The notes below the pieces were generated by a model, which was not told where the DNA came from, did not search any database, and saw nothing but the letters and a program-made list of their open reading frames with translations. Shown here one piece after another: positions 25,301 to 52,300 of a stretch of 64,000 nucleotides of DNA. The stretch lies in NCBI GenBank assembly GCA_030265395.1, contig JARFYF010000017.1, forward strand, positions 21,898,549-21,962,548, written 5' to 3'. Every line of letters starts with the position of its first letter. The first letter of the stretch is position 1. The position numbers and the translations under genes were made by a program. This DNA is from Rhina ancylostomus. Lineage: Eukaryota.

Positions 25301-28300
25301 GATTGGTGGGCCAAGGGGCTGTCTCCACACTGTATCACTCTGGTTCTCTGTGTAAACTGATTCTTTTTGATAAAAATGTGAAAACATAAGATTGAGTTAT
25401 AAGTCTGTTAAAAATATTAATTAATACCATCATGCTTCTTGGAAATGATACTACTCACTGATCTATTTTATGTTAAGCAGAACTATTCTTTATTACTTAA
25501 TGAATTAAATAAGGAATCACATGTTTTTGTTTGTTCATTGCAGTAAATCACACCACCACACTTGCACCTAGATACTCTCATTCACCGCTCCATGGCCTTG
25601 GGCACATGATCATGCGACAGAGCTATATCTGCACACTCATCATCATGATGGTGAGTACCACATGATTTCTGACATTTTGATTGCAGTTTGCTAACTTACC
25701 AGGATGATGCTGATCTTTATAACATTGGAAGATAAATAATCTCCTGCTAGCTGATTCCATTCCCCTCCTCCTCCACCTCCACCCTGTCAGGTACTCTCCT
25801 GTTCCCTCAGTCTGATTCCTCCTGTCCTGGTGTGTCATTTACCTTTGCAGATTAAGCCTCAAGCCACAACATCTTTCATTCGGTCTTATAAACTGTGTAC
25901 TGTTTGCCATGAATATTTTAATCAACTAAGCAGAGCTTTGCTCAAAGCCATTTAAACAGATGTAAAGAAAGTTATTATATTCACAAATGTGTTGCTCATC
26001 TCAAACTTTGATAATCCTCTATTTGGAAATACCAATGGTTTGCTATCAATTTCACTCCGTGATGTTTCCCAATTCCCTTTTTGCTAACTGGCACCTTGGT
26101 TTCCAGGCTCCCTTCCCACTCATCCATGCAGCAGTTCCCACACACCCATTCAAGTCATCTGGGGTCCCAGTTACCACTCTCCCTTTTAACTCACTGGGCC
26201 CTAGTTCCCACACTCCTTTTCAATTTACTTGCTTCACTGGATAATATCCTATAATGTAACAGTTTAAAAAATTGTATTATAAGTTTGTTGAGATATTAAT
26301 AGAAATAACAATTGGTATTCTGGAAATTCTGCTAATTGGGTATCACTAAAGATCATGCTGGATTATCGGAGTTTCTGTATTTCCTCCTTTTATCAGAAGA
26401 TGGAAGTCTCAAACGTTTCAACTGTTTAAATCACTACCCGCAAAAGGAATGACATAACTAACATAGAAGTTAGCAAACATTTTGAATACAAAATGCACCT
26501 GTTTGTTCCCTGTACAAGAATTATGGTTTGGTTTAGTTCTGATTTCTATATTCAGAGTTTGATTCTATGCCCTGTACAAAAAAATGAGGCTGTGGATTTC
26601 AAGTGATTCATAGTATAAAGTGTCCTGTCTGTGTCCTGTGGCAGCAGTGTAAGCCGCTGAGGAAGCTGGCAGTGCCTCCAACAGTTTGGGTGATATCCTG
26701 GTGACCCACGAGGTGCCTGTGGGACAGAATGGTTTCTGTGTTAAGTCCGAAGCTTTGGCACAGACTGGAGGTAGTCTCCATGTATCGCTGTGTGCGTGTT
26801 TACTGTCAGGCTCCCATTTCCTTTTGTGAGCCCATCAACTTTTAGGTGGGTGTGGTCCGCCAGCAATCTTCTTTCTGTTAGGCTGGTACCATTCACACTG
26901 TATCCCCCAGCCCACAAACTTGTGGCAGGCAATGCTAGCCTGCTCTCTAAATTACATGTCTGGTGTCTGAGCTGGCACTCTGGATCAAGTGTCACTTCAT
27001 CACCTGGAAGGGTTACTTTTAAAAGGCAATCTATGTTCGTGTCTTCAACACCAAAAATACCAGGGACATAGCTCTAAAGAGAGAAACATTTCTGAATGGA
27101 GCATCGGCAGTTTAACAGTAAAGTTTGTAAGGTGAGAAAGGAATATTAGGGGAAAACTGAACAAGGTTGTGAACAAACTCTGCACAACACCTCTAATATT
27201 GTCAGGCACCATGATTTAATAGTGGCATTCTTTCCTTTAAAAGGCTGTGGGTTCAAATCCCATCCCAGAGACATGAGCACGAGTATATTTCTGCCTGTCG
27301 GTTGTCTGGGACAGTTTTGCAGCTCTCTTTTAAGAGATGATGACTGCCTGCAAGTGTCTTCAGAGCACAGTTGTGCTGATAACAAATAGGACATTAAATA
27401 ACAGCTGCTCAACTGATCCCAGGTAATGAGGAGGCAGCATGACTACTGTGTGTGACCTGGGGTAGAAAGTACAAGGTTGAGATATACATGTATCCATTTT
27501 TGGGCCAATCAGATTTTTAGGACGTTGAACCGAAAGTGATAGTGAACACCTTTAAGATGGAAACTGCTTAAGAAGGGCAGTTTATTTTATACCAATCCTC
27601 AAAGTATTTGGTGATAACATTTTTCATGTATTCTGTTTTTTGAGTGTTTTAATGTCCTCCTTTTCCAGGTTTGGAGTATTACGTTTCACAGCTGGTTAAC
27701 CTTTGTGCTTTTGATTTGGGCTTGCCTGATCTGGATTGTCCGTAGTCGACGACAGCTTGCCATGTTCTGCTCTCCGTTCATTCTGCTGTACGGAATCATG
27801 CTCTGCAGCCTGCAGTATGTCTGGGGAATGGACTTGACCGAAGAACTTCCAACCAAAATCGGATTTGTGGTTCTGACACAGCTTGGTTTAGTCCACATGG
27901 AGAATCACTGTTTGTGCCTCGGTTTAATGGTCAGTCTTTTCATTAATCTGATGCATGTGCTTACTGAAGGGGGCATTATCAGTCTCGGTTTTATCGACTT
28001 TTACAGCAGACCCCTTGCCAGGCCATACTCTCCACCAGGTGCACAATTAATGTCCAAGCCTTATCACTGAGTCTCACCTTGGTCTTCCCCACTGTTCCTC
28101 TGGCATCTTCTCACCTTGTTTTACTCTCACACCCATTTAAAATCTTTTATGTGTACCTGTCCCCTCCCAAGTCCCACCATGAGAGATTCGTACACAACTG
28201 CTTCTGCCTTCAGCCATTTCACCAACCAAAAGCCAATCCTTGATCATTTCAATTTCCATCTCTACCATCTTGATTCTGTGTTTTGCCCCTACTGGTGACA

Positions 28301-31300
28301 TAGAGATTGATCTTGCCACTGATCATTTAAGTGCTGTCAGATCCCTAGCACCTAGAAAACCAAGAGCAATGAGCCGATGAAAACACTGCCACTTCAAAGA
28401 CCCATCCAAGAAATGCCTCATCCTGACATGAAAATGTTTTGCCATTCTGTAAACATTCCTGAATAAAAATGCTGAACCTCTATCTCTATCGGGACCGTGG
28501 GAGTATTTCCTAACATAGACTGCATTTGTTCAAGGTGGCAAATCGTCCCTGGTTAATGATGAGCAATTAGAGACCTGGAATACATGCTGGCCTTGCCACC
28601 AATGCCCATGTTCTGTGAATGAATGAAAGAAAGAAAGACTGTTGTTTCACATCCAGCCTTTGATGAACCCATAGTTTCCTCATTAAACATCGGTTAGTCC
28701 ATAACTTCTACAGACACGTCACTAATGGTATCCTTCATGCCCATTGTCTCAGGGTGCAGTAGTCTGTCCGTGCCCTCGGTCCTCATCTCATCCTCACGCT
28801 GAGTGTTCAATCCCCTCTCCAATCTATCACAACGTCTGTTTTTACCTGAACCTTTGCCTGCTCTGGTTCATCTGCTGCAATCTCTTCCCTTCTCCTGTGA
28901 CCTTCAGATGTGATTATTGCAGCACATCCTCGGGCAGGCTCTCAAACTCCGTTATTTGTAAGGTCTAGAACACAGCTGTTCATCCTTAACCTCCCCCTAA
29001 ATGCCACTTCCTTGTGCTTGCAAGGACACTCCCTACCTCGCAACACCTCAGATTTAAATTCTCGATCTTCTGTCTAATTTACTCGTGTCATTCCCCACTC
29101 CCTGTCTCTGTAATCTGCTCCAGTACTGGGAAGTGTTTTCCCACATTTCTCCATTTCCTGGGGTCTGGGCATCTGTGCCTCCTCCCATCCCTTCTCCCCA
29201 CCATTGACATCTGTGCCTCCTGGCCAATGTGCATTGTTCCCCGGAGTTCCCTCTTGAAGCCTTTCTCCTCTTCCTTCAGGATTTTGTTTTAAACCAACCT
29301 TGTCAATGCTCCTAGTATATCCTTATTTGCCTCGATATCTCAAGAGTTCCAAAGCCTGACCCGAGTTTATCACAAGTTAGCTTGGGCTAGTGATTGAGCC
29401 ATTTTGCATTGAATTCTCCCCAAACAAACCCAATCGTGCCCTCATGACATATTTCAAAAGGAGTCACTGGAGATATCAGAAAACAAAGAAATGTCAATTT
29501 TTATTATCTTTTACAAAAATAATTTGCTTTGCTCTGTGTCCATTTAAGGAATGGCCATGTCCTACAGCTGGAGCTATGAATACTAACAATTTCATCTCGT
29601 TTTATCCTCAGCTGTTGTACACACTCACTTTTTGGCTCTTATTGCGCCAATTTGTAAAAGAAAAATGCTTGAAGCAGAAAGAGGTCCCATTGAAAGAAGT
29701 AACTGTGCCTGAGGCAGGTGAGTGATGACATGCTTGCAATCAAAATTTCCATCTGGAGAGATGTGGCTACGTTTCCTATTTGGATAATTTTGGCTAAATC
29801 AAATTTCTGATGTTGGCAAAACTAGAAACCAGGGGTTTGGGCAATCAATCAAGAAATGTAAGTTTGATCCAATCAAAGAATCCAAGGAATTAAAGTTCAG
29901 TTAAATAAATTTGTAAATCTGGAATAAAAATGCCGCCATCAGCAATAGTGACAATGAAACTTTTTGATTTTCATTAAACAATCCTGTCTAGTTCATTAAA
30001 TAGTTAAATAGTTTGTCCCTTCAGAGAAGGAAATCTGCTATCCTTGTCCAGTTAGGCCCCTCTGTAACTCCAGACCCACAGCAACAAGGTCAACTTTTAA
30101 TTACCTCTGAAAAAGCCCAGCAAGTCCTTAATTCAGGTTTAAAGTGCAATAAATTCAGCTAATTTTTTAAGAAAAATTAATTGCTAAGTGAACCAAAGTT
30201 AGATGAGAAAATATAAATTCATACATTACAAGCTACCTTGGAACCTAACGTTGTCAAGATCTTTAGGTTCTGATGTATCTTCCAATTGCAGATTCCGGGA
30301 GGTGCTGGTGAGTTAGGTAAATATTCATTTATCTTCTAGCAACAGAAGTTAAGTAAACCAAATTTATGATCAGTTGATTGATTAACTTCTGTTGATTTTC
30401 TCAAATGGCCAGATTCAGCGAGATGGTTTGTAGCTCTGAAGCCTAAACAGGAAAGTGATTGCATTCAAACAGACAAGACACGTGCTGTAACTAATATGTT
30501 TCTTTTTGTCCAATCTATGAAGTATGTCCCTATCTTAGGTTTGTTTATATAGCATTGCATGAGAACTTGGTTCAACTAGCAAAGAAAATTCCTTCCCCAG
30601 TGAAAGGTAGGTTTGGAGAAGAGTTTGACCATTTGGGTTAGAATTTGACCATATTCTGACTCATTATAAAGGAAAATTTAATTACTTTCAGTTAAAATCT
30701 GACATGCAGAAATATTGATTTCTGCAACTTCTACACATTCATTGTATATTTTTTTCCCTATTACAGGCCAGGAGAAGAATGAAGTTTTGAAAGCGCTTGG
30801 GGAAATAGTAATGAGTTTCTATGCCAAGTATTGGATTTACATTTGTGGAGGGATGTTCTTCGTTGTCAGTTTCACTGGAAGAATAGTAGTCTATAAAATT
30901 GTTTATATGTTCCTTTTCCTCCTTTGCCTGTCATTCTATCAGGTGAGAAGACAGTAAAATTAATCTACTGCAGAAAAACCTTACCCCATAATAAATCAGT
31001 TTTAATAATCAGCTATTTAAGAACATACTTTGTTATGAAATACATATAAGGCTTGATATAACTGTGCATCTTGATACACAGCTCCTGATGTAGCCAGGTG
31101 TGCTTGTCTCTGATTGGATAGTGTCTGAGTGAAGATTAAAGGAGATAACTCTGTGATCTGTTCATTTGAAACTACTGCTGTAAAAATCCTGTCTGGTTAA
31201 CCAGTGTCGTACATGGAAGGAAATCTGCCATCCCTACCTACTATGACCTAGATGTGATTCCAAATCCATCAGTCTGGTTTCTGATATGAGTTAGCAACTG

Positions 31301-34300
31301 CTCAGGTCAAAGGGGAATTAATGATGGGGAATAAATATTGACTTTGTCAGTGATATGCAAATCCCATGAAAAAAAATTAAAAGTGTTGTAATAATGTACT
31401 ATTTCAAGCTGTTCCAAATGCCCTCTGCAGCTGAAGTTTTCAATCTCTGCTGCCTTTTGCTAATGTTTTATTCTTGCTGTTCATTTTGCTAGGTTTGTTA
31501 CTTTCTGTGGCGGAAGCTGCTGAAGCTGTTCTGGTGGTTGGTTGTTGCCTACACAATGCTGGTCCTCATTTCCGTTTACACTTTTCAATTTGATGACTTC
31601 CCACATTACTGGATAAACTTTACAGGATTAACAGAGAAACAGTATGTGCCATTTTAATTCTGGAANNNNNNNNNNNNNNNNNNNNNNNNNNNNNNNNNNN
31701 NNNNNNNNNNNNNNNNNNNNNNNNNNNNNNNNNNNNNNNNNNNNNNNNNNNNNNNNNNNNNNNNNNNNNNNNNNNNNNNNNNNNNNNNNNNNNNNNNNNN
31801 NNNNNNNNNNNNNNNNNNNNNNNNNNNNNNNNNNNNNNNNNNNNNNNNNNNNNNNNNNNNNNNNNNNNNNNNNNNNNNNNNNNNNNNNNNNNNNNNNNNN
31901 NNNNNNNNNNNNNNNNNNNNNNNNNACAAGATGGTTGGAACAGCTAACTATATAAGAGTGGAATTATTCATGGGATTGTTCAATGCAGGGGGCCATTTGG
32001 TTCATCCTGTCTGTGCAGGCCCTTTGCCAGAGCTGTAGAATTTGTCTTTCCCTTTTGAAGTTGAGAAGGGAATTACAGCGCACTTTTTAAAATTCTACTT
32101 TTTTTAAAAAAAATCCATCACCATACTACTTAAAAGAAAAGTGATCTGGAATTTAAAATATGGAATTTTAAAAATTGTCACTTTAGAGCTACGATAATAG
32201 TAATGTTACTTGTAATCCAGAGGCATGGATTGCTAATCAGAAGGAGTTCAAATCCCACAACATTAGTGAAATCTAAATTCAGTTAACTAAATACATCCAA
32301 AATAAAAACCTAGTGTCAGTTACAGAGACCATGAAACTAACATTGTTATTTAAAGCTAGCCTGGTTCGCCAACATCCTTTGGGGAAGGAAATCTGTTACC
32401 CTTATCTTGCTTGGTGTATGACCCATAGCAAAGCTGTTGACTCTGAAATACTGCAGCAATGCACTACAGCTGTGCCTTCACACACTGCAGTGATTCTGGG
32501 AGGAGACTCAGCACAACCAAGGAATGGTTTGCCAGCGGTGTCCACATTCTTTGATTAAGAAAGGAAAGTAAAGGCTTTGTAAAACAGTTTCCTGACTAGA
32601 ATTTGGAGCCCTCTGGTCCATAAACTATGAACCCTGTGATAGATGAACTAATTTCATTCCCAAGGCAAGCTGTAAACAGTACTTTGAGGAACTGTTGCTG
32701 ATTCATCAGCCAGTTGATTTTATTCTTTAATGCAGTTTGAGGATTTGGTGTCAGTGTCCAAAAACCCTACAGTGACTTAACAGAATGAGCAGCATTGGAT
32801 GCAGGAGCATTGGAAAATGTGCTAGTAATCTTGGCAGAGCAGTTTCATTATGTCCAGTGGCACGCACTCAGAAGTCAGTAAGCCATAAATCTTTTTAATA
32901 TCCTTGTGTGGTAACTGTTATAAGTAAATGGATTCCATTCATGTCAAAAAACAAGATGGCTAGAAAAGACATTTTGTTATTGAGAAATTTTTCAATATAC
33001 TTAGTCCGGATAAATGTTGTTCTTTTGAATATCCAGGTTAGGTGATATGGGATTGGAAAAATTCGGTGTCAGTGAGCTCTTCTCCAGCATCTTGATCCCT
33101 GCCTTTTTCCTGCTGTCCTGTATTCTACAGCTGCACTACTTCCATCGACGTTTCATGCAGATCACTGATCTGGAGCACGTACCCACAAAAGGAAAAGGCC
33201 CATTGCACCGGTAGGACTTGAATGCATCTGGTTTGATCATTCAAAAAGAGCTAATGCAGATAGTAAATGGAATAAGTTATTCTAATAAAGCTTGTGCATT
33301 AATAAAGAAAACACACAACATAAGGTGATCACACTAAACCTCCTGGATTAGGTTTTGTCCCATTGACCATGAAGTAAAGCACAGATTAATTTTAGGTTTA
33401 TTTGTCTCTCAGTATGAATAGTCACATATAGACACCATGATTATCATAATGAAGGGAACACTGAGACTACTGTAAGTCTGAGATTCCCAAACCTTGACAA
33501 TGAGGTTGCCATCAACTTGCCATCTGAGCATAAAAATAGGAACCCAAAAATGGTCTTTCTTTATTTTTTTTACATATCCATTGAATTTGGATGTCTGATT
33601 GTTTCCTGGAATATATAGATTATCTAGAGCTTTTCCACCTTCAAAGTTAGATCTTTTAGAAATACGTTGGTAGCTAGAAGGGACCACTGACGTGATACGT
33701 TGTTACATTTTTGGAAGGTTCCTTGTGATCCACAAAAGCTGGGCTCTTTCCTGGCCTAACAAGAAACACTTAGTCTCATCTGTGCTGGCCTTCTGCCTCC
33801 TCTGGCCATAGACAGCATGGTTTGCCCAAATGGAGAATGTTTCCTTCAAACTTAAGTAGTAACAGACAACTATATGGTTTCCTTCTCCAACCCGACACCC
33901 ACTGTAATCACCAAGGTCACAAAATGATAATGAGGACCAACAGTTTAAAATCTCCCAGATATTATCCCCAAGGAAACCTGGAAGAATGCCACCTGCTTTT
34001 GCCCCCATACCTCCAGTTCCCACTTCAAGTATTAGAGGTGCTGTTACTACAATGGTGTCCAATCCAGCTGAGCTTTTAAACCACCTGAGCATTATTGTGG
34101 AGTTACAATCAGATTTTGTTTCAGGGAGTCAACTAACACACATGAAGGGCTTCTTAAGGAGATGGTGGAATTTTTCCGTAGCTTTCTGGGAGTTCATATT
34201 TAATCTGAGATGTACCTCAATAGTGTAATCGAGAAGTGTTTGAAGTTACATTGTGTTGGGTAAATAACATTTTGGAGAATTTAACTGCCTTCCTGCACAT

Positions 34301-37300
34301 CTTCTGCCAGACAAATGGGGTTAAAATCAACCCTGATGATTGTACCCCTCAGCCAGCAATTAGAGCATTGACAGGTAGGTTAGCCATATGCATCACATCC
34401 ATGCATTTCTCTTTATTACGTAATTACATCTAGAAGCATTTACCAATTTCCACTGTTTATTTGCTGTTTGCTTTCTTTCCACATATAGGCTGAAGGAAAA
34501 TTTAGCAGCACATTCTGAGGAGTAAGTGTTGTTATTTCTATTTCTTTATTGATTTTGCCACATTCCTGTTTTGGTTTTATAATGTTTTCACTTTGACAAT
34601 CAGTTGGTCTGTCTTTGCATGTAGATCACAGGTGTGGGTATGTAATCCTCTGATTTTTTTGCAGATGATTCTTTTCCTGTTATTATTTTTCACTAAGCTG
34701 CATAATTGCTCAGAGTTGGTCCATTATTGATCCAAGATTCAGCCTTCCAACTTTTCCACAAAGCACAGCTGTTAACAGATGCTAACCAGCAACTTTCCAT
34801 AATATGCTTACACCACTGTGGCAACATTTAATAGTATTTTTAAGAGTTATTATTTACTGTTGCATTGAATTTCAGAGCTAGCTGTCTGGTTTGGGTAAAC
34901 TTAGATAAAAATGCACCTGCTACATGGAAATGTTATTTTTGCAACACAGGGCATGGTTTTGTGCAAGATTGTTAAAAGGTTAAGAACAGCTACCTGGATA
35001 CAGTACTGGATCAGGTAGTGCCACTGCATTAGTCATTGCCTTTGGAAGAATGCTGACAAGTACAAAATTCAGGAACTTTGAGAAGGAATGAATTGCTTCT
35101 GGTGCAGTAAAAATCCACTTTCTGTTTTGCTGCCAGCTTTCTCTCTGTCCCAGATGAAGTTCTTCATTATGGTACAGTTCAATGGAAACTGATGGACATT
35201 ATGCATTGAAAATTCCTATAACATTCAAATACAGTGAGCATTACTGTCACACTTTACGTTTACCTCACTCAATGACTACTCACATATATCCAATTAAGCA
35301 TAAGAAGTAGGACTAGGAGTAGACCATGCATTCATAAGCTCACGAATCTTCCACTTCAGCACCACTTTTACAGGGGCTTGACAAGCTAGATGCAGAGAGA
35401 TGTTTCTGCTGACTCAGGAGTCCAGGGCCAGGGGCAACAGTTTGAGAATAAGAGGTGGGCCATTTTGTACTGAGATTAGGAGAAATTGTTTCATTCAGAG
35501 GGTGGTGAACCTTTGGAATTCTCTACAGGCTATCCCAGGTTAAGAATTCCCAATTTACAGACACCCCTACATATGAACAAGCTCCCATAATATCAAGTCT
35601 GACATATGTACATGCGTTAGTTTCTATAAATTGCAGAACTGGTTTCCCCTCTCTCTCTCCACTTTGAGTTATTGTTCTTTCTTATTAGTCTTATGAGCTT
35701 TTGATGCCATTCATTACAATACTGCAGAGGTGTGGTTACCATATCGAGTAATTTTTGTCTATTTTCCAATATACGGACAAAATTGACTTATGGATGTCTG
35801 TAACAATGGAACCCATTTCTTACCTGGGGACAGCCTGTACTTCAGCTAACTGCGGAAGCTCAATCATTAAGTTTATTTAAAACAGAAATTGATAGAATTT
35901 TGGAAAATGTGGAAGCCAAGGGATATGAATAATCCTTTTGGTAAGTTTCGTTGAGATCTCCTCAATCTTCTAAACTCCAGAGAATACAGTTCCAGTCTAC
36001 ACAATCTCTCCTCATTCAGCAAATCATTTACAGTGCTTCAGTCTGGTGAATCTTTGCTGCACTCTCTCTTTGGCAAGTGTTTCTTTTCTTAGATAAGGAG
36101 ATCAAAACTGCACACAACACTTCAGGTAAAGACTCACCTAAGCCCTATACAACTGCAACAAGATTTCCTTACTCCTGTAACCAAGCTCTCTTGTAATAAA
36201 GGTTAACACATCATTTCCTTTGCAAATCATTTACTTCACCTGCATGTTGGCCTTCAGTGATTCACATTCAAGTGCACCTTGGAGCCTTTGAATATCAGCA
36301 CCAGCCTCTCTCACCATCTAAAAAATACTCTCTTTTTCTCGTCTGTTATTAATTGAAGGACATATAATGTAGATGTGGACCATATTTCGGTCCATTGCAT
36401 CGCTGCTCCCATTCAATATCATCATGGCTGATATTTTATCTCAGCAACACTTTCCTGTATTCACCACATTTCCCTTGAGTCCTTACACTTCAGAGATCTC
36501 TGAGGCCTTGAGTGGGTTGGGTCACACGCACAAGGTTAATATTCTCCTATTTCTTCCTCTGTCATTAATAAAGCAACGGTAAAGCTCAATGGGGAAATTG
36601 TATAAAATAGTCCCAAGTTTTAATCAAATAAAATGTTGTGTGACATTTTTCAAGTTTTGATCTGGCACTCAGAATGGTGATGGCTTTTATAAAAAGAAAA
36701 TGATGTTGAGGATACATGAACATGGACTTGTATGTCTCCTTCCCTCTTTGCATGCCATTAATATACTGCAGAAGGTTTGATGAATACAACAGAATGAAGG
36801 GGGTAAATGGCATGCATTTTATTAGTACAAATGTTGAGGACGCTCTTGCATTATCATCACCTGTTCACATAAATGTGATGGTTGTAAAAAAAGGAATATT
36901 TGATGAATTGATTTGTTTGTGCAAAAATAAATGTTAAAATGAAAGGAAATAACTCAAAGTCAGATGTATTTCAAGGTAATTTTGTCCTTTGTGCATTTGC
37001 AACACAGAGCAGCTGGTACTGAACTCCTTCAGAATGGGGCAGCGGAAGGCACAGACTGTGAGGACGATGATCATCCTCCGGCGGAGGGGAGCAGGCTTGA
37101 AGGGGAAAGTATGTTCTTGTATTTGCACCAAATTACTTCTCCTTTTGAATCCCTTTTCAAATTTAATAGTTAGATCTCCTGTGGTGAGATGAGCCAGTAA
37201 CTAGTTGAAGAGCAAATATCTGTTATTTGAATTTTAAAAGAATGAAAAGATTTAACTGCGTTATCACATCTGAAAAATCATCTTGAGTACTTAACATTAG

Positions 37301-40300
37301 AAAGTTAAATGGCAAACGTACTCACTAAGGTGAACTGTAGTTACTGGTGACGTTAATGTGGGGCAGTGGTCATCCCCTCGCTCTGAACAGGAAAGAAATA
37401 AATACTGGAATTAACTTAGACAAGACTTCACATTCCTGCCAGCTCCCTGTTTCTTGCTGGATGGAAGCATATGTCTAAAATTCTGCATTAGTTCAAGCAC
37501 AGATCAATGTAGGTATAAATTAATAGTTGTAGGCTGCAAGATTCAGTGTCCATGACTTATGCTTGTTTTTAAATATGTGACAAAATGAATTGTTGTTAGA
37601 GAAGTTACACAGCAGCTTACCTGTTATTGCTTATGCTGTATGTTTTCATATCAGGTGGCCTGCCCACATTCTCTCATTCTTTTATTGCAGTTGTTTACAA
37701 TAAGTGGGGCTTAGTGATTGACCGCCTCCTTGTACTTTTCCTGCAATTCTCCAAAATCCTCAATTGCATCCAAGTGATAATTTGGAGGCTCCTGGAATTG
37801 CATGTGATGAAACTTGTGGCCCTGTTCAGTGTGTGGGTTGCATTGAAAGAGGTATGAATTTCTGAGTAATGGTATCTAAAAATTTTGGCAGATTGAGAAT
37901 TAAGTCACAAATCAGTGAACTTTGTCTTGTTATCTTTTTCTTGCAGGTAAATCTAAAATTCTCACTTTCTGCACTATTGTAACTTGATTGTTGCTGATCA
38001 TTGTGACAACACAGAAATTATGATAATGAATATGACTTTCATCATTAAATTTCACTATCAGACTATGCTGTTTCTTCACTATTGTTTCTTCACTGTTGAG
38101 AAGGGAATCGGTTCAGTAACTTATTGAGGTCTATTTCTTCAACTGACAAGGTTTCAGGAAAGCAACATAGATTTCCCTAATTTTTCTTAATTTGTTTTCA
38201 AGCCGTCCGTCATGAACTTTCTCTTCATCGTCCTCTGGGCATTTGCAATGCCATATACCAAGTTCCGTCCAATGGCTTCCTGCATTTCTACTTTGTGGGC
38301 TTGCATCATTGTTGTCTGTAAAATGCTGTATCAGCTGAAGATTGTAAATCCAAAAGAGTATTCCAGCAACTGCACGACGGTAGGAAATTTGTGCATTTGA
38401 TGTGTATAGATAACAATGCTCAGTTAGTCACAGAAAAAGGTTCAGCAATGTCCAAGCTTTATCTTTGTAAGGATACACAACATACAAGATTAGCTCTGTT
38501 AACCTCCATCTACATTCTTGTCCCAAGAGTGTTTAGTGGGCTCATGATGAGCTAACCACAGTTTTTTCTTCCAATTATAAAGTGCAAAATAAGTGCAGTT
38601 AGGATTGATTTATCTGACACTGTTCTTTACTGTATTCATGATTCTGTTAGGCTTCTAGAAATCCTTTCACCTTTCTCTCTATTTTCTTCCTTGGTAATAT
38701 CACCTAAAGTTTGTAACATTTGTTACATCTAAGTTATTCTAAATGTATAAATGCTGCTATTCTTGTTTAAATTCTACATGGTACATTTATGTTGATATGC
38801 AGAAATATTCTTCTCTGCAGCTCTCTCCAAATGAGACTAATCTAAAACCGGATGAAATCGTGCATTCTGCACTGTACAGAGGGCCCGTAGACCCTGCCAA
38901 CTGGTTTGGATTCAGAAAAGAATTTCCTGTCCTTGCTTACCTCCAAGTGAGTCATCAAAGTCTGTGCCAATTAGGGCAGAAGAGTGGGGAAATTGTCTTC
39001 AATAGCTCTGACCCATTTTAAAAAACTATTAGCATGTAAAGGGGGGCATTTTAACTTTACACTATGGCATGACCACTGCCTATTACACACCCTGCAGGAG
39101 GTTCCTTGAATTAATTTGAGGATGCTGCTGACAAAACTGTTTTTTCCCATCTCTTTCCTACTTGCTCTCAGAAGGTGGTGATGAGTCTTCCAAAGTTGAT
39201 GGAGCCTGCCTGCTGCAGGTAGTCTAACTGTTGTTAGATGGAGTATCTAGCTCAGGATGGGTGTGAGCTGGAGGGAAACATCTTGTGATGGTCTTATCAA
39301 ATACCTGTAGCTATTGTTCTCCTTGATGGAAGGCAGTATGGGGTTTACTGTTGAAAAAGCCTCAACAAGTTTCTGCAATGCATCATGCAGTGAGTACTTA
39401 CCACCGGCACAAGCCATAGNNNNNNNNNNNNNNNNNNNNNNNNNNNNNNNNNNNNNNNNNNNNNNNNNNNNNNNNNNNNNNNNNNNNNNNNNNNNNNNNN
39501 NNNNNNNNNNNNNNNNNNNNNNNNNNNNNNNNNNNNNNNNNNNNNNNNNNNNNNNNNNNNNNNNNNNNNNNNNNNNNNNNNNNNNNNNNNNNNNNNNNNN
39601 NNNNNNNNNNNNNNNNNNNNNNNNNNNNNNNNNNNNNNNNNNNNNNNNNNNNNNNNNNNNNNNNNNNNNNNNNNNNNNNNNNNNNNNNNNNNNNNNNNNN
39701 NNNNNNNNNNNNNNNNNNNNNNNNNNNNNNNNNNNNNNNNNNNNNNNNNNNNNNNNNNNNNNNNNNNNNNNNNNNNNNNNNNNNNNNNNNNNNNNNNNNN
39801 NNNNNNNNNNNNNNNNNNNNNNNNNNNNNNNNNNNNNNNNNNNNNNNNNNNNNNNNNNNNNNNNNNNNNNNNNNNNNNNNNNNNNNNNNNNNNNNNNNNN
39901 NNNNNNNNNNNNNNNNNNNNNNNNNNNNNNNNNNNNNNTCCATTAGAGAAAAATGGCTGTTGGCTACCCAAGTGGGATATGAGGTGCAGTTCTTCTGGTT
40001 TGCTATTGGCCTCATGGTGGCAGTGGAGGCAGCCTAGGACAGACGGGTTGGTGTGGGAATGGGAGAGAGGAAATGACACACAACGGAAGCTCCACAAAAG
40101 TGTTCCCGAGCCTACACTTGATCTCGCCAATGTATAGGAGGCCACATCGTGAGCACCAAATGAAGTGGACCAGGTTGGAGGAGGTATTGTATATGTGAAT
40201 CTCTGCCTGACATGGAATGGCCATGTAGGTCCCTGGTGGTGATGAAGAAGGAGGTGTAGGGAAGTGTTGCACCTCCTATGGGTACAGGGGGAAGAGAAGT

Positions 40301-43300
40301 GTCAGAAATAGTCCAGGTGAATTTTTATCTCCAACATTTTGGTCATTTTGTTTTCAATGGCACACAGAACTCCTTGAAATAATTTGCTTGCATTTCATTT
40401 TCCACCTCATCCAGAACCATCTTCTTCTGCTAATGTTACTAATTTTTGAGATAACTGTGTACCGGCACCAAGAGCACTTCCGCAAGTACAACCAGCTGCC
40501 CCAACCCACCACTGGTACTATCTTTCCAGAGGTCACTCGGCAGCACCTGGATGAAAGCGTCATCGGTTGTGCCAAATATTTCAGCAATTTCTTCTTCTAC
40601 AGGTTTGGTTTGGAGGTATGTAAAATGCTACCAATCAAGTTTACATGTAAATAGCACACTTTTAAATGATCACAAGGAGTTAAGTAATTATGTGTTTCTT
40701 TGATCTCTTAAATAAGCCGCTAAGATGGTTTAGTTAAAAAGAAATGGGCTGCTCAAATACATTTAGGATAGGACACAGTCCTAATGCAGGCAAGTGGGAT
40801 TAGTACAGATGGGCAAAAAGGTCAGTATGGACATGGTGAGCTGAAGGGCCTGTTTCGTTGCCGTATGATTTTATGACTCTCTTAGAGAAGTGGCCATGTT
40901 TTAACATTATTAATTTCAGTTTTCTTCATCGAAAAATTGACCTACACATTTAATAGTTCCAGCATTTTTCCTTGGCTGTCACTATTGTTGAACTGTATTC
41001 TCAATGCCATTATGTCACATCAGGCCATGGTGAAAGATCTCTTAGTCTGAAGGGAGGGTTCAGTTGTACCTGTGACAATATAATTAGGTTTTGAGGGCTA
41101 ATGGATGCAGCCAGAGCATATCAGATCCAAGTCTGAAGGGAGGGTTCAGTTGTACCTGTGACAATATAATTAGGTTTTGAGGGCTAATGGATGCAGCCAG
41201 AGCATANNNNNNNNNNNNNNNNNNNNNNNNNNNNNNNNNNNNNNNNNNNNNNNNNNNNNNNNNNNNNNNNNNNNNNNNNNNNNNNNNNNNNNNNNNNNNN
41301 NNNNNNNNNNNNNNNNNNNNNNNNNNNNNNNNNNNNNNNNNNNNNNNNNNNNNNNNNNNNNNNNNNNNNNNNNNNNNNNNNNNNNNNNNNNNNNNNNNNN
41401 NNNNNNNNNNNNNNNNNNNNNNNNNNNNNNNNNNNNNNNNNAACGGCAGGCAATTGCCAGGCTTTGGCCCAAGTACTGCCTCTTCCAGTCCCTTTTCCTG
41501 TTGTACCAATACCTGTTGTGTCTGGGAATTCCTCCAGCTCTCTGCATAGGTATTGAGTTCTTCACTATTTTACTTTGATTGCAGGTAGAATATAGGTGTT
41601 GCTGGCAAGGCCAGCATTTAATGTGAATTCCTAAAGGCCCTTGAGAAGGTTGTAGTGAACCAGTTTGTTCGAACTCTGCTGGTCCAGGTGCTGAAGGTTC
41701 TCCCAATATGCTGTTAGGAGGTTCCCTGTTTTTGACCCAGGTTTTGATGATGAAGTCATGATGGTGTATAACTTGGAGGGAAATGTTCAGGGAATGGTGC
41801 TCCATGACTGCCCTTGGAGGTGGACATCATGGGTTTGGGAGGAGCTCTTGAAAGAGCCTTGGTGAGTTGCTGTGTGTTATATGGTGCACATAGGGAGCAC
41901 GATGCTATAGTGGTGGAAGAAATGCCAGTCTTATGGGCTACTTTAATCTTGACAAAGATGCACTTTAAATGGTCATGCAACATTTTGCTTGTTGTGTGAT
42001 CTCTATAAGTAGATGCACTTGTACAACTAACCACTGCTATTGCATACAGCTGTTTATGGAGCCAAAGATCAAGTCAAACCATCCATGCCTCTTTAGTTTA
42101 AAGTGAGCTGTGGAATTTTTAAATTCCAGTAATACATGCAGAGAGGGTGGAAGTGGTGATCACACAGCTACAGCATGTTTGGTTGTAATTACAGACCATT
42201 GCAAAGCATAGAGTGCACGTAGTATTTTACCAAGTCCAGATCCAGTTTGTATTAATTTGATTTGGCTATGACTTTTTAAACCCAATTTGATTTGGCTAAA
42301 ACCCTCACATTGAGGACGAGGCAATAAATTTGGAGGTTTGTCTTGATTCTAATACTCTTTGATATGACTCTCAAAAATCAATTAAGATGTAATTAAATGT
42401 ACACCATAGTAGAATCTTGATTATCTGCCACATCAGAGCAGCCTCCAAACTAATATGAAAATTGACATATAACTGAGAGTCAGTGACTTTATAACTGATG
42501 AATAAATACTCCTCTTGATTATGAAGCTAAGTTTGGAAGGGCATACAGCTAAGGGACACAAACTTCTATTTAAAACAATATGATATATGTTCTTGAATGA
42601 GAATGCTGGCAGTCTGACCTCTGCTGAAGCTATTCTCATGACCAGTAAATTCCATGAGATACTGAACATCAGAATGGCAGCTACTGCTACTGAACCAAGA
42701 AGCCAAAGCTTGTGAGAATCAATTCAACAACTCTCTCTGACTGGATGTTAGAGGAAGAGGGTAAAATTCTTCAAGGGGAAACCAGAAACCAAGCCACCAA
42801 GCTTGTTTTGTGTTAGATTTGCTTTTGAGGAAGGAAAATCAGGCTTGTTCTATTACCGTGTGATGCTCCCCATCCAATTTCTCATTGGCGCTTCACCCAT
42901 GCGATGCTCAATGCCAAGGTGCTGAAGCTGAAGCTATCAGTTGCAGTTTGACTCCTTTGTGTAAACCTGAGGCCCAAATCCCATTGCAGTTTTGCAGGTA
43001 AACAGGATCTCTGGCACAGAGACTATGGGCAATTGAGCTTCCACGCTGCCCTTCTTATAGTAATGAATTGTGCACAACCTTCAGGACTGTGATAACGTTA
43101 ACACCTCAAAAATTCTCCCTAGAAAATAGCATGGATTGGTGTACAGAAAGAAAGTCTATTCTCAGCTCCTCAGTATTTTCATCAGAAAATGATTTAATAT
43201 TGCAACAAAGAGAGAGATTGGTGTTCTTCCTTTCCAGTGACCTGTCACACTTTTTATTATCATGTTGGCTGCTGATGTAATCAGATGGGTTTTGGTTTGT

Positions 43301-46300
43301 GTCAGGCATGGAAACTGTGCTGTATTAACTTGTATTTCTAATTTGAATATTCCAGCCCATGTCTCCCGGCAAGACAAACACTGGATCTAGAAGCCAGAGG
43401 AATAAAGCCCAGCAAGAAGTTAGTGCTACGCAGGGAGTTTGGGTAAAGATCCAAGCCCTGGGAGGGAGAGGAAAAGCTAGGCCAAGGAAGCCAGTTTGGT
43501 TCAGAGCAGCACCTTGTTTCTCCCAGCCGACGGTGTTTTCACACCAAAGTAATTTATTGAATTCACCCTTGGCCTAACACTGAATATGAAGCAGCTGTGC
43601 TCCAAAACTGTAATTAACTATGCTGAGGGCTCTTGAGGTGATCGTTAGGCTGCAAGCCTCTGTCCTCCTGCAATGTTCTTGGGCATCATTGTGATGATGG
43701 TGAAGTGAGGGTTGATAGATATCAGTGATTTAGAAAATCTTTAGTTTTGCAAATGTCAGGCCAGAACGTTAAATGATTTTAATGGAGTAAGCAAATTTTT
43801 CTTTAATTTTCCACAGATTACCCATGGAGATGGCCATCCCCCATCACCATTCACTCCAGCTTAATTAAATGGTTCTATCTGCCTGACTTTGTGGCTGCCC
43901 CTAGTTCCACACATCTTTTCTGTAAGTATGCATCAATGTTTGATTCTAGAAGCACCAACCACAGCGGGTAGCGTTTCCTCCTCGAGGCCAGAATCTTAAT
44001 GAATGCCGTCAGTAAGGGAAGGGGTGCAGGGGTGGGGTACAGGGTCATATGCTGAGATGGTCACAAGTAGGGTGATACTTGGGGTGGAGGTCAGTCAGTG
44101 GGTGCTCAGTAAACAAGATGTCCTTGTGGAGAGTTGATCAGTGATTGGGTTTGGCCAGGGAGACAAAGGGGGAATGGCTGATTGTGAAGGTGGCCATGAA
44201 GATGAAGAGGACATTCAGGAGGTTGGACAAGGAGACCATTGGGTTGAGTGGAGAGAGACAACTGAGGTGCCCGATAACATTGACACCAGTCAGTATGAAA
44301 GAGTATTCAAGGAAGCCTGTGATGTAGGAGGTGGATGCCTCAGGTAAGGATAGGCCTCCACTGAATAATGCTCGAGAAGGCTTCAGCCTAGCGATTCCTT
44401 CAGTTTTTGAAACCTTTGCTGTTTTCAAGCCTTGTTTGCACAAAAAAAAGCTGTGCATGGCATGTAACAAGAACTCAACGTGTCCAGTGGCCTTGATGTC
44501 ATGCATTGAGCACATGGAACAAAAATCTGTAAGTGCATTGAATGTTATTCTGATGAATTTCCATCGCATAGTACACAAGAGTAATGCAATTACATTTCCA
44601 AGCCTCTACCAAATAGCAGTGACTTTAATTGCATCATTTACCACAGGAGACCATTCAGCCAACATTACTTGTGCCAACTCTTGGAAAGAAATATCCCATC
44701 AGTAATGCACCCTGGTCTTTGTGCACTGCCCTGGACACATTTCCTTTTTGGATATAAATCTAGGCTTGGCAGAATTAGATTTTTATCAGTAAACATGCAT
44801 AAATAATAATTTCAGCTCACATTCATAAACCAACAAAATATATTTCCACTGTTCATAACTTCAGAAATTGTAACAAGAGAATTGTTTTTTTGTATTTTTA
44901 ATTATTTTTCTTACAAATATCACATTACTGCCAAAGGAATATTAAAGCAGAGATGAATTATTGATTTATCCATACTGACTACTTATATTTTGACAGATGA
45001 TTATTTGATATTTTAATGGTATACTGTCATTGATAAAATGTCTAGCTCCACATCCCTAATTTTGTGTCATCCTGAAAATTCATATTGATAAAAAAATAAA
45101 CATTTTTACCTGCAAAATTAATAAAATTAAATTCTGCTAGGTATATTTAATTAATTGCATTAAAATTATTGTATCTTTTTCCATCATCCTGTCAGATGAC
45201 TCTTGAGTTTAAAATAAATAGTTTCTCCAAAATGTTTATTTTGCCAGATTCAAGTTATCTTGAATCTGTGTCCTCTGAGTACCAGTCCTTCTGTTCCTGT
45301 AAATCTTTTCTCTTAAAATCCCCTGTCCTGGCCACACTGTTCATGGGTGATGCAGGCTGCTTATAGAAACAGTTTTAGCTCTTGAGTGCAAAAGGCAAAG
45401 CGTAAAGAACAAGAGCAACCTATAAAAATCAGCTGATGGACTGTGGGAATATTTTGGTATTATTTCATTGTGCATCTGCAAGATGTTTAGTGCTTCTCTT
45501 GAGTCCAAACCTGAGGTGTTTGGGGAGTTCAGTATTGCCTTCAGTCTTGTACAATATTTTTAAATCTGACAGAATCCAGCCTCCCTTATTAAAAGCAACT
45601 TAGGCTCAATGAACTGAAATGCTTAAGAGAGTATATAAGTAATTTAACATTTGCACTATAAATTCAGAGTTAAGTGGTTTAAGGAACTTAATGACTAACA
45701 TTGGATTTGCCAGCAAGATCCTTTAGCTTCTAACTTTTCCTAATTCTGTTAAAAGATCAGGGACTTAAAATGTGAACTAATTTCTCTCTCAACTTGTGCA
45801 GTCTGACATGCTGTTACTGGCATTTTCTCTTTTCACTTCTCTTTAGTTCTCCCTTTTTCCGACTTTCTATCAAACATCTCAGTTCCGCAATGATAGCTGA
45901 TTGATTTTCAACCATTTGCCCATTCTGTTTGTGAGCCAGAAAAAATGGTTTTGTGAATCAAGGAAGTTTAGGAGCCAACCTTTTAAATGTTTCTCTCCCT
46001 TCTCATTAAAGTGTGAGATTGTTTATATTCCCAAAGTAATCCAGCTCCTTAAACCATTTAGCTGCCTCTACTGGGAGCTGTCTGGGATCTGTCAGATGCA
46101 GCAATGCTGTGCTGATGAGGTACTTGCAAAATTTGTGCTGCACAGGTTCATTATGTAAACCTGTCAGAAGGTGAAACAAAGCTTCAGTTCTAAAAGGTGA
46201 AAATGAGGTAATTTCTTACAGTTAATGATTTTTTTTCCTTTTTTTAAAAGTAAATGTCAATCCAACGATGTGCCTGAAGTGAGATGGAGATTTGAGACTT

Positions 46301-49300
46301 AAAGCATTGATAAGAAATCCAGAGTATTAAATGTGTTTTTATTTATAGTAAGATGATTAAGAAGAGCCAAACATGATTCAGGTCTTGAAACTGTGGAGAA
46401 GCATGGATAATTTGGATGTAAGCAGGTTATTTGACTTGGACTATGATCACAGTACTAGAGGATGCACATACAAAATTGATAGGCCTCAAGCAAGGGAGAT
46501 TAAAAGAATTTATTCTCCCACAGAGTGATGGTTATGTGAAACAGATTTTGAGGAAAATTAACCTATGCAGTGTCAATTAACTCTTTCAAGGATGAAAAAA
46601 ATCACGGAGCTAAAAATATCAATTAAGGTTACAGGATTAATTATCAAGTGTGATAATTTAATAATCTGTGGAATATGATTGTTTCTGACTTGCTGCAACC
46701 ACAGTTATTTCCAGGCTCAATAATATGGTGTATTAAAGGGATTATATTGATCTTCCAATCATTGCTATGATATCTATGTTCAAACCTTTGAATTAAAATT
46801 AAATAGAGTCCTAATTAAGAAACTCATGGAACATCACTAGCCACATTGCACCAATTCAAAAATTATCTAGATACCCATACAATATGCTTTCTTATTGACA
46901 TAACCATGGAAAGACACATCACCCTCCAATAGGAAGGGAGACCAATAGTTATACCTTCCTTTATTCAGCACTTTATAAACTGTCTTCTGAAAAAAATTTG
47001 TACAAATGCACTCTTTCCCTTATCTACATAACCATCTCACAATTTACAAAAGGGATGCATTTAGTGAAACTCTGTAAATTGAAAAAGCTGGGTGAAATGT
47101 ATTATGGGTATTTCAGTACAGTGCCCTGATGGGTGGAGAGTGGCACACTATTCATCATTGCGAGAAATAATTTTGTAAATCACATATTTGCAAATCAAAG
47201 AATACCTTTACACACTGTGTTACCTGCAGCAAATAGAACTGAATTAGGGCTTACTTATAGATACTTTTTATCTGTGCTGAGTTGAACTGAGACTTTAAAA
47301 ATTTGATCACTAATTTACTCCCATACTAGAGTCCTACAAAGTTTATTTGCAGTGAATGATAAATAGAATATCTTTTCAAAGAAGAACTATCAGTATTTTA
47401 AATATGATCATTGCTGTTGCCATTTTTAATTCATCATTTTCATTGATGGTACCATCAATACCAAAAGCAACAAAGGATTTGTTCATAGGTGTTCATTCAG
47501 CTGTAGGAGAAAGCCATTTTCCCTTAGATACCACAGTGCAAGTAATCCCAGTTGCTTTGTGCTTCTTCCAACTGCCAGATACCAATTCTGTTCTTCTTCC
47601 AGTTGCCTCCAGTTGTACGATGTTGAAATGACTCTTAACATAAAAAATACATGGAGAACAAAAATTATTCATACTCCTGATAAGGTGCCTGTGAAATTAG
47701 ACAATCCCTGTGCAAATGGTAACTTTCTGTCACTCAAATATATCAAGGTTACACTATTTTAAAATCAGAATTGTGTTCTCGTTTTTTTCTCTCTCTCTCT
47801 CNNNNNNNNNNNNNNNNNNNNNNNNNNNNNNNNNNNNNNNNNNNNNNNNNNNNNNNNNNNNNNNNNNNNNNNNNNNNNNNNNNNNNNNNNNNNNNNNNNN
47901 NGACAGATCAATCACATCATCCCCACTCGCCCCTTTTCTCCCTCTCTCCAACCATCGTCTCCACTCTGATTCGCCTACCACCTACCTACACAGTATGCAA
48001 TTAACCTACCAGCATATCTTTTAGATGCGGGAGGAAACCAGAGAACCCAGCAGCAACAAAGATGAGCACAGGGGAGACACGAGGCCAGGATTGAACCTGG
48101 GTTTCTGGAGGTGTGAGGCAGCTGCAGTAACTGCCGTGTTATTGTGCTGCCCAATTCTGTTTGGATTAAGACATTCAGCATCTTTGTCTTTTCAATGCAC
48201 TTAGGCACTGTTGAAAACTATGATGAGAGTGCCTATGTGCATTATAATTAATACAAATAGTTTTATTAATGTTAACATGCAGTTAACATATGTTCTTAAA
48301 ATGGAAAATATTTTCTTATTTTTTAGTCCATTACAATTTGAGCTCATGGCAACAATTCACCTTGCCTGCTGGCTGCATTCCATTTATTGGAAGAATTGCT
48401 ACTCCATTCCTGTTCTGAACAACCCTTATCGTGAATTTTGCATCTCTGTCTCAGCTTGTACACCTTCTGTACGAATCGCATTTATTACCCTAGACATCAT
48501 TGCCTTTTATTCTGCAGTTAACCCACTTAGCAAAACAGGCAACATCAGCGGAGAGAGGAACAGAGGTAACATTTCAGGTCGATACCTTCCAGCAGAATTC
48601 AACAGCCTCAGTTCTATTTCCATAGATGCTGTCTGATCTGCTGAAGACTTCCAGCATTTCCTCTTTTAGTTAGATTTCCTGCATTCACAGTATTTTGCTG
48701 TAGGTTTTTTACATAAATGCTTCACTTTTTATTCATTGTCTGAATTACAAATGGAATGATGGAATCAGAGAATTGTACAGCACTGGCCACCTGACCCCTG
48801 GAGCCTATGCTGGCTCTTTTGGGAGCAAGTTAATAAGTCCCGTTCCCTTCCTCTTAACCTGAAGACCTGAATTTTTATTTACTTCTGCAGTTTACCCTTC
48901 TGGCTAATGAACCTGCAGCCATTAGAAACTTGTTATTCACTGTAAGCCCTTCATAATTTTCAACACCTCCGCCAAATCTGATCTCAGTCTTCCCTTCTCT
49001 ATAAACTCCAAATTCTCATGCCTGTCCACATAACTGTCATCTTTCACCCTGGAACTCTTCCAGTAACTCTCTTCTGTAGCCCGTCCAAAGGCTTTGGGTT
49101 GTTTCTGGTCTCTGGTGCTCAGATTTGGAAGTGATACTTCAGCTGGGTCTGAGCCAGTAGTTTAAGTGTGTTTGACATAACTTCCCGGCTTTAGTGCCCT
49201 CTGGGCTGGATTTTAAATTCTTGACTTGTTGTGAGGTGAGGGGAGGGTGATCTGAAAGCACGTGGGAACCATAAAGTCCAGCCACTGCATTGCTGTATAA

Positions 49301-52300
49301 TTTAGGAGTTTCCCAAACTCTCTGCTTGAGTGGTCTCAATGACATCCCACACACATTGCGTTTTATCTTCACTGTTTAAAAGAAGCACCAGATATGCAGT
49401 TTGATGGATTCTGGAGTTTGGAGCAAAATGTAAGGCAATGTGGGCTTGCTGGCCTCAACAGTGACTGTGTGACATGCTAAGCTTGGCCAGCTATTACCCT
49501 GTACCAGTGGGGAAGAGCAGGTGGGCTAGGTGAAGGATGATGATGGAGGAGCACGTGGGGACCGAGCATTACACACTTCTACATTACCTGTTGACCCTGT
49601 GTTACCCTCTGACCCTATGTACCTTAAATGGGGCTTCATGCGCTGATGTCTGAGTCTGTCCTTCAGAGGTAAATGGACCAGGCTTTCCTGAGGTACTCTC
49701 AGGCTCCAAATCCAAGTCGGTCAAAAGCTTCACAGTGGCCAGAGCAGGGAACAGAGCATCTTGCCTCAGCTATCGCTGAACCCGCAGCGTTGCACCGCAT
49801 GGACACGCTGAGCCATCACAGAGAAAAGATTCCTCGTAGCACAAGGGTATCCATGGGAGTTATCCACCACAACGTGACTATTGACTTTTTGTATCATTTC
49901 CCTTTCCATGTTTGGCAAGTGGCTCTTTTGCTTAGGAAAAAATGGAAAGACATGATTTGACTCCAAGCTGGGAAATGAATACTAGGTTGTTGGAAGGATT
50001 GCTTTGTGTTGGGACAAGGAAGAGGTTGAGGAGGAAAGAAGGTGAATGAGGTGAATGGACTCACCCACCTTTCTGCTGTGACTCAGTCTCAAAATACCAC
50101 CTGGTGAGGATACCACACACATGGCATGAGCTGGACCAGCTGCCTTGTTGGTGAGGCATTGGTACTTGCACAGCGAACATTCACCGGTGACATGCAGAGC
50201 AGGCTGAGTTAATGCCGGTGCCTCCATTTTGGAGATCAATATTCCAGGCAATGCCTTCTCAAACTTGCACAACTGCTCGCAGTTTCAGCAGCCTGAAGGA
50301 CCTTGGGCAGCCCTACTTAAAGGGGCTGTCAGTGACTCTCCGCTTAGTCACTGACTGGTTTCTCTTACCTATCGGTCCTTCTGCCAATATTCAGTGCTTT
50401 CTGACTGCCACTTGCCCCCCCCCCCCCCCCCACCTTTCCACCCCTTCCACCTTCTCCAGGATGTTCTCTCTCCTGAATTTCAGTGAGGAACATGTAGGCT
50501 ACTTCAGCACATCGATGAAGACGTTGTCACTGAAATCCGACTGTGCTTTAGAAGTTACAGGTCGACTCCAGACAGGGCAGCCAAGCTTATCTGAAGCCAG
50601 CCACTGACAATGTGGATCTGCTGCTGAACTTGCAACCACTCAGCAACATAATCTAATAGTGCTGGCTGAGCATGTCATTGGCAGACAGCAAAAATTTAGC
50701 ATGCTGCTTGCATCACAGGGTTAGCCCACCTTGGAAGCAAGCAAATTTAGTCCATGTGGTGTTTAATTACATTTCTCAATAAAATGCCAAAGCATTTTAT
50801 CTATTGCTCTGAAATAAAGTGAACATTGAAATGGAGGAGCAATCCACAAGCAGTCACGAAATGAAGGATCATTAATCCTTGCTGCTGTTGGCTGAAGGGA
50901 GATCATTGCCTGGGACATAGAAGAATTTTTCTGCTGTACTTTGAAATTGTGCAGTGGGATTGGCTTAACTGTTTCATTTAAAAGATTGATGCCTTGGTAG
51001 TGTAACTTCCCTTTAGCAGTACAACTTGTTAATCAGCCTAAATGTGCTCAGGTTCTTTAGTGGGTCTTGAAGTCATTAGTTTCTGATTTGGAGTGAGCAT
51101 TTATTGACAAGTATCTGTCAATTCCACATTGCAAGCCAGAACAAATCAGCATCAAATAGCTGCAGTTTTTAAAGTGCTACAAAGTGTGACAGGACAGTAG
51201 GTACAAGATATCTAAGTAGAACATAATTTTCTGTTATTTAAGTTTCACATATAATTATCAAGCAGAACTAATTTCTGTTTAGTAGACGATTCTGTTTATT
51301 GGTTCTTTTTAACTGCAGATGATTTTCTGTTACTGATGTGCGTATCCCTTCAGTGGCAAGTATTTATTGACGAAAAGAAGGAAGAGGTTCATACCATAGC
51401 TGGTGAAAATACAGATAACCCTGATCCCATGACTGGCCAGGACCTGAATCCAGTGCCAAACTTTATTTACTGTCGGTAAGTTTAACAGAGGCTTCTCTGT
51501 ACTTCAATGTGAATTCTGATTTCCTGATTTGATGATAAAATTTCATGCATGTTAGAAACCTGTCTTGAACTTTTTTCTAGTGATGAAATAATGCACTTAA
51601 AGTAGAATAGTTTCAGACCTTTTATCTGTAGCTCAGCCTAATGAATTTAGCTCCCAGAGGAGCTGCAATTCAATGACTGGGAAAAGATCTATAGAACAAA
51701 ATTATTATGGTTTGCAGAAAAAATTTCAGCATATTTTGCCTCCAGACTGATTAAAATTATACTGTAATTAGTTTCATTAATGGTTGCAGTTAGTACCTTG
51801 GGCAGTATGGTTAGTGGAACATCGAAAACTAGTTCATGTGCAGTTCTTTCTGCCCTGCAGATGTTACCTGGACATGTTAAAAACTGTGGTCTTCCGGTAC
51901 CTCTTCTGGCTTGTATCGGCAGTCATCTTTGCAGCTGGCTCCACTCGAATAAGTGTATTCGGCCTTGGCTACCTGCTTGCCTCCTTTTATTTGCTTCTCC
52001 TCGGCAGAAGACTTTTACTAAAGCCAGCAGCAAGTCGTTTAAACTTTTGGGATTGTTTAATTATGTACAACATTACCGTCATGATTGCAAAGAATATGCT
52101 CTCGGTGAGTCTTTTCATCATCAAAACTTCAGAAAAATGTAGAAAACAAAGTTCTGAAATAACAAAGAGCAGTGCATGGATTGTGATGTTAACAGCTTTT
52201 CCTAATATTGCTGGAGGTTTCACAATTCAGATTAACCAGTGCAGACAATTTGGGCAGAAGCTCTGACTGCTTAAGTAATTAGATTTTAATTTTGAAATGT

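Follow-up and report, generated by a model that had tools for sequence, protein, structure and literature searches.

Is a 33-nt stretch in an intron of a ray PIEZO1 gene a genuine microexon and, if it is, how old is it, and is its inclusion switched between tissues? The window analysed here, 64 kb of a Rhina ancylostomus contig, lies inside the middle portion of a PIEZO1 gene on the + strand (Table 1). Its mapped exons share 90–92% identity with named PIEZO1 proteins of batoids, 85–87% with those of sharks and 76% with that of a chimaera. In a tree, the gene falls in a batoid clade (support 99) within the PIEZO1 clade (98), apart from PIEZO2 and PIEZO3, and for the exon upstream of the microexon mouse Piezo1 (86 bits) is a better match than Piezo2 (58 bits). 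The gene is the batoid (chondrichthyan) PIEZO1 orthologue. One expected PIEZO1 exon is probably hidden in a gap of Ns at 41207–41441; a tandem duplication of about 78 nt (41045–41206) abuts this gap and is likely an artefact of assembly.

Table 1. Features of the PIEZO1 gene and of the microexon region (window coordinates)
Feature	Position	Strand	Details
Mapped PIEZO1 part	7196..61931	+	25 exons mapped
Upstream exon	33037..33210	+	carries the final helix ahead of the loop; 3′ end CAC CG in phase 2; counterpart of PIEZO2 exon 17
Three YCAY motifs (possible NOVA site, putative)	34384..34402	+	at 34384, 34393 and 34399
3′ splice region	34437..34488	+	AG exclusion zone of ~52 nt; candidate branch points -47 and -30; TGC at -27 and -20; acceptor TAG
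Microexon	34489..34521	+	33 nt, symmetric phase 2-2; (R)LKENLAAHSE(E); very probable PIEZO2 exon 19 homologue
Donor, then U-rich tract	34522..34607	+	GA/GTAAGT; T fraction 0.54 in 80 nt
TGCATG, RBFOX-type hexamer	34616..34621	+	+95 from donor
Downstream exon	37008..37108	+	encodes the acidic, disordered loop; starts in phase 2, ends in phase 1; counterpart of PIEZO2 exon 20
Following exon	37691..37851	+	opens next transmembrane unit (KWGLVIDR)

The microexon reads cacatatag/G CTG AAG GAA AAT TTA GCA GCA CAT TCT GAG GA/gtaagt, so that the product with the microexon contains R-LKENLAAHSE-E, and the frame is also kept on skipping. A tblastn search with the Hypanus PIEZO1 protein matches 34487–34522 with 11 of 12 residues identical. 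The symmetric phase 2-2 exon of the original prediction is borne out by its reading frame, by the phases of its neighbours and by protein conservation, which is the decisive evidence that it is a genuine exon. Splice signals by themselves would not prove it, because a rough position weight matrix, several of whose acceptor training sites were mis-set, ranks it just 6th among the 102 stop-free phase 2-2 candidates in the intron. As PIEZO2 exon 22 encodes TM18–19, the loop that holds the microexon lies between TM16 and TM17; we take this loop to be cytoplasmic and unresolved in cryo-EM. The downstream exon has tandem acceptors (CAG/AG/CAG, 37005–37012), and only use of the first is in frame with the mapped donor.

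The exon is conserved across cartilaginous fishes. A search with the Leucoraja protein gave 14 named chondrichthyan PIEZO1 proteins among its best 120 of 729 matches, and 13 of these 14 carry RLKE[NS]LxxxS at an offset of 16 residues from the T of TDL; the 13 proteins span 11 species, chimaera included. Across the 11 species, pairwise identity is 0.76 for the segment, 77% for the tail of the upstream exon and 0.55 for the downstream loop. The fourteenth, the Callorhinchus UniRef model P0289, was not accepted as a sign of skipping; relative to the RefSeq protein, it has a gap of 13 residues here together with 16 other indels. Two further searches added little: an exon-only homologue search returned 7 uninformative matches, and the ESM Atlas returned generic Piezo names only. 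Profiles built from the window's exons on fish scaffolds placed teleosts above the window's own exons and were dropped from the named search.

By contrast, the motif is found in none of 179 named bony-vertebrate PIEZO1 proteins, a set that covers bichir, sturgeons, gar, bowfin, many teleosts, axolotl, Xenopus, lizard, birds and mammals, with three unnamed proteins excluded. The exon had been predicted to be lost from mammalian PIEZO1; it is indeed absent there, and the restriction to mammals does not hold, gar, proposed as one place to look for it, also being without the motif. As far as these protein sets go, the loss is therefore osteichthyan rather than mammalian. With coelacanth and lungfish outside the set of 179, a single loss in the stem of bony vertebrates is the simplest reading, others being possible.

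The length of the loop separates this loss from a second route to the same pattern, in which bony vertebrates fused the exon to the next one by intron loss and then accumulated deletions. Percomorph loops open with KKKSSERTE, which scores 10.8–16 against the shark set, and SKSELLHEGE of Polyodon scores 9.6, as fusion could leave behind; the LKE[NS]L core, however, occurs in 0 of the 179 proteins, and the basal lineages score low. Chondrichthyan loops are 60–64 residues long, and those of 9 of the 10 listed non-teleost bony vertebrates are 50–56 (mouse, 60); bony-vertebrate PIEZO1 loops are about 8–11 residues shorter. The length of the shark loop minus 11 (mostly 51–53) falls in the range of basal bony loops, and we consider fusion highly improbable.

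Some bony-fish gene models have additional residues at this junction. Five percomorph piezo1 models (P0290, P0291, P0293, P0297 and P0328) show a few, QSASR-like, consistent with an alternative acceptor. The insert ending VYLLMNA in Prochilodus piezo1 (P0057) was considered as a surviving exon 18 and rejected, a second characiform model (P0030) opening with the same RQRPF; RQRPF after the junction in both models suggests a GC donor with read-through in the predictions.

PIEZO2 has an alternative exon 19, reportedly described by Szczot in 2017 and covered by Sindoni 2026 (10.64898/2026.02.16.706133) and a review (PMC12490864). It lies at the same TM16–TM17 junction, encodes 11 residues and has an L/I-K-x-x-L core, and its phase is probably 2-2; primers of Sindoni 2026, decoded by eye, give SIKKKLPIHQN, which follows exon 18. 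PDB chain 9vee_A, which has no insert, reads TDLKSIPSKEDNTIY-R-LAHPEG, and chain 6kg7_A has a 14-residue insert, Ser first, ahead of the Arg of R-LAHPEG. The window reads TDLEHVPTKGKGPLH-R, with the same residue count as 9vee_A, and in both PIEZO2 (9vee_A and 6kg7_A) and the window's PIEZO1 the insertion falls at an Arg in position 16 from the T of TDL. The Arg/Ser change that accompanies exon 18 at the PIEZO2 junction fits an AGN codon split in phase 2, a phase read from the protein residues alone. The exon-18 insert has 13 residues in the codon-optimised constructs of Sindoni 2026 and 14 in 6kg7, so the constructs cannot be used to place the native junctions; the 11 codons of the microexon equal the length of PIEZO2 exon 19 as given by codon-optimised cDNA primers.

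Residue similarity adds less. In BLOSUM62 terms, PIEZO2 exon 19 scores 18 against the window's peptide and 10–11 against the chondrichthyan set. The direct p is about 0.005–0.007, with a shuffle p of 0.007 against the chondrichthyan set and of 0.04 against the third clade described below; among the charged loops of the 179 bony-vertebrate PIEZO1 proteins, at least 12 score 10.8 or higher at some position by chance. The similarity is modest for the chondrichthyan set because the highlighted His column varies among H, R and P. Of the 11-residue match first proposed, the junction and the length stand, and the His match is weak; junction, length and inferred phase support homology between the microexon and PIEZO2 exon 19, as judged from sequence. 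The two exons differ in their C-terminal halves, and the microexon has no exon-18 partner in its intron, none of the 102 candidates there being a 42-nt exon-18-like exon upstream of it. Among 7 non-mammalian PIEZO2-like representatives inspected, neither exon 18 nor exon 19 was seen.

A third clade, drawn from 150 unnamed representatives and examined in 12 members, links the two paralogues. It is distinct from PIEZO1 and PIEZO2 (100% SH-aLRT) and groups with PIEZO2 at 94% in a longer quick tree, a shorter tree leaving the order of the three clades unsettled; one member scores better on the Piezo2 than on the Piezo1 chains of the PDB. The published PIEZO3 (si:dkey-11f4.7; PMC13228305) likewise groups with PIEZO2, and by tree topology and PDB scores the third clade appears to match it. 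In 7 of the 12 members, an 11-residue segment follows an exon-18-like stretch, which the window's PIEZO1 lacks (as does one of the seven, P0143): LKENIEKFQQ, IKENIEKIQN, LKDNIEKIQR, VKETLQKLQS, LKVTLRKLRK, LKAALCKLQN and MRSNIGRLIE. The first of these is the closest match to the window's LKENLAAHSE, at the equivalent position (LKENI against LKENL). P0134 aligns without gaps to the end of PIEZO2 exon 17, exon 18 and exon 19 over 15, 14 and 11 residues and into the next Leu-Ala; P0230 (SDKNAESRVYLLAN) is close to PIEZO2 exon 18 and divergent afterwards; and three members have the loop missing. We did not count P0143 (16-residue spacing, then LKAAL, as in sharks) as proof of the layout, as it may be a partial model. 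P0134, P0230, P0131, P0202, P0215 and P0144 are PIEZO3-type proteins with counterparts of PIEZO2 exons 18 and 19. Relative to P0215, exactly the 11 residues are missing from P0144, so that PIEZO3 may be alternatively spliced here.

Could the segment nevertheless be an innovation of cartilaginous fishes, arising by exonisation or intron gain, with an amphipathic composition as its only likeness to PIEZO2 exon 19 and PIEZO3? The modest residue similarity to PIEZO2 exon 19 would allow this, and the segment is absent from all the bony-vertebrate PIEZO1 proteins, from invertebrate Piezo loops, where nothing alike was seen by eye, and from P0136. The last is an unnamed Piezo of vertebrate type that falls outside the three clades and may be cyclostome; its junction shows the same 15 residues and Ser with neither insert. 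The profile of the third clade, however, scores 11.7 against the shark set at offsets set by eye and no more than 5.9 when slid to 28 other offsets (column-shuffle p of 0.004). A free scan places the best score at the chosen position in just 2 of the 12 members, partly owing to helical periodicity. Two observations argue against innovation: the LKEN[LI] match in P0131 scores 18.3 at a background frequency of about 2e-4, and junction, length and inferred phase are common to the three paralogues. We regard innovation as improbable, and homology across the paralogues as very likely. Because PIEZO1 is sister to PIEZO2 and PIEZO3, an exon common to them would date to their common ancestor; an origin before the PIEZO1/PIEZO2 duplication, as originally proposed, is probable and gains strength from the PIEZO3-type clade.

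The ancestral vertebrate Piezo gene would, on this evidence, have had a cassette exon of which the microexon is a relic. At the time when PIEZO1 parted from PIEZO2 and PIEZO3, the TM16–TM17 loop would have held one or two small phase-2 exons, of 14 and 11 codons. Both would survive in PIEZO2, as alternative exons 18 and 19, and in the PIEZO3-type clade; chondrichthyan PIEZO1 would be left with the 11-codon exon alone and bony-vertebrate PIEZO1 with neither. Taken as a whole, including the default inclusion and the helix discussed below, we consider this account likely.

Whether the exon is also regulated depends on how its splice signals are read. The TGC motifs, the YCAY cluster and the TGCATG hexamer on which the original prediction drew are all present as described. 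Singly they are common: TGC precedes 9 of the 24 other mapped exons, TGCATG lies within 150 nt of 3 and a YCAY triple accompanies 1, and the window holds 38 YCAY triples and 28 copies of TGCATG on its + strand. All three types together occur at 0 of the 24 other exons, and their coincidence at random window positions is 0.15%, for window sizes picked post hoc. The AG exclusion zone is the 6th longest among the 25 acceptors of the gene, and the T fraction after the donor is the highest of 24 donors, the runner-up being 0.41. Both TIA1-type U-rich enhancers and RBFOX2 have broad activity, and in the NOVA RNA map an upstream YCAY cluster favours neuronal skipping, not inclusion. Such motifs would suit a regulated exon as well as a short one whose constant inclusion requires aid.

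A tissue-regulated microexon, spliced in by way of SRRM3/4 and RBFOX in neurons or sensory cells and left out in other tissues, would yield a neural form of PIEZO1, in parallel with PIEZO2 exon 19. Its symmetric, frame-preserving length, the two TGC motifs, the long AG exclusion zone, the position of the TGCATG and the YCAY triple are all in keeping with such an exon, and the three-motif coincidence and the candidate branch point at -47 fit one too. That candidate would match the median of 45–47 given for neural microexons in PMC12871342, the candidate at -30 being equally possible. In 10.1101/2024.09.17.613571, UGC occurs in 74–79% of SRRM3/4 targets, and lengthening a microexon can abolish its SRRM4 dependence, which counts against regulation here; the UGC between branch point and AG, moreover, has its like upstream of the 9 ordinary exons noted above. 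Human PIEZO2 offers a precedent, transcripts without exons 18, 19, 35 and 40 making up about 50% in lung against ~2% in DRG (Sindoni 2026).

Gene models, by contrast, favour default inclusion. The microexon is skipped in 0 of the 13 sound chondrichthyan PIEZO1 models among the best 120 of 729 matches, the short isoforms X3 and X4 included. RefSeq isoform numbers may follow length, and if they do, X3 (2,517 aa) and X4 (2,494 aa) of S. canicula leave no slot for a form shorter by 11 residues. These proteins are cluster representatives of gene models, and a skipping isoform could hide inside a 90% cluster; the Piezo1.1-type 24-codon exon at 61860–61931, however, is skipped in 4 of the same 13 proteins, so the set does capture chondrichthyan splice variants. 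Default inclusion is therefore likely as far as gene models can tell, and may be aided in rays and sharks by the long AG-free acceptor region, the U-rich tract past the donor and the RBFOX site. The neural or sensory PIEZO1 isoform first proposed goes unsupported, since all 13 sound models include the exon and the upstream YCAY cluster would predict skipping, and we judge a tissue-regulated exon unlikely. Equally doubtful is its wider form, in which the Piezo gene before duplication had a splice-regulated exon 18/19 module encoding an amphipathic helix in the TM16–TM17 loop, and chondrichthyan PIEZO1 still switches its half by tissue (for example, ampullae, lateral line and ganglia versus blood).

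What would a relic exon included by default contribute to the protein? In an AlphaFold model of Leucoraja residues 569–956 (42 sequences, mean pLDDT of 82), the segment lies in a helix with a pLDDT of about 57–61, followed by disorder. The microexon would add roughly three helical turns, probably amphipathic, where an otherwise disordered loop begins. For human PIEZO2, Sindoni 2026 gives T50 values of 2.1 versus 2.0 mN/m with exon 19 removed and 3.0 versus 3.7 mN/m with it added, with no significant change in tension sensitivity; it describes no known function for exons 18 and 19, and its authors propose binding or modification sites. The likeliest role in PIEZO1 would be a loop helix for contact with a partner or lipid, perhaps a docking or modification surface, rather than a gating element.

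Two known systems bear comparison. Like SRRM3/4-dependent neural microexons, this one is short and symmetric, with UGC between branch point and AG and a long AG-free zone; unlike them, it is included in every sound model, apparently by default, which also sets it apart from the alternative exon 19 of PIEZO2. The lateral-plug exon (Piezo1 exon 30, Piezo2 exon 33; Piezo1.1) is likewise one cassette exon common to both paralogues. It alters conductance, however, and stays in mammalian PIEZO1, whereas the counterpart of the microexon has no measured effect on PIEZO2 gating and was lost in bony-vertebrate PIEZO1. The 72-nt exon in the window (EQSATKEKSQEKRKWWHPWANHAK), which those 4 of the 13 named shark PIEZO1 proteins lack, appears to match Piezo1 exon 30 in position. 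Exon 30 encodes 24 residues of the lateral plug, and skipping it makes Piezo1.1 (PMC12490864); this splice switch seems as old as the jawed vertebrates.

Mammalian Piezo1 has been described with one known splice variant. Automatic RefSeq models already contain the microexon. Searches of the open-licence literature turned up neither a description of it nor a link to PIEZO2 exon 19 or PIEZO3, and so no account of the homology across paralogues; the string 'splic' does not occur in the main text of PMC13228305.

If shark PIEZO1 and PIEZO3 do hold counterparts of exon 19, the earliest vertebrate Piezo already had the module, and the change was a loss in PIEZO1, not a gain in PIEZO2. Its conserved L/I-K-x-x-L/I face would then be a defined target for mutation or pull-down. 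Should tissue switching prove true, sharks and rays would have a class of PIEZO1 isoform that bony vertebrates lost, and the three paralogues would form a natural series for finding the partner of PIEZO2 exons 18 and 19.
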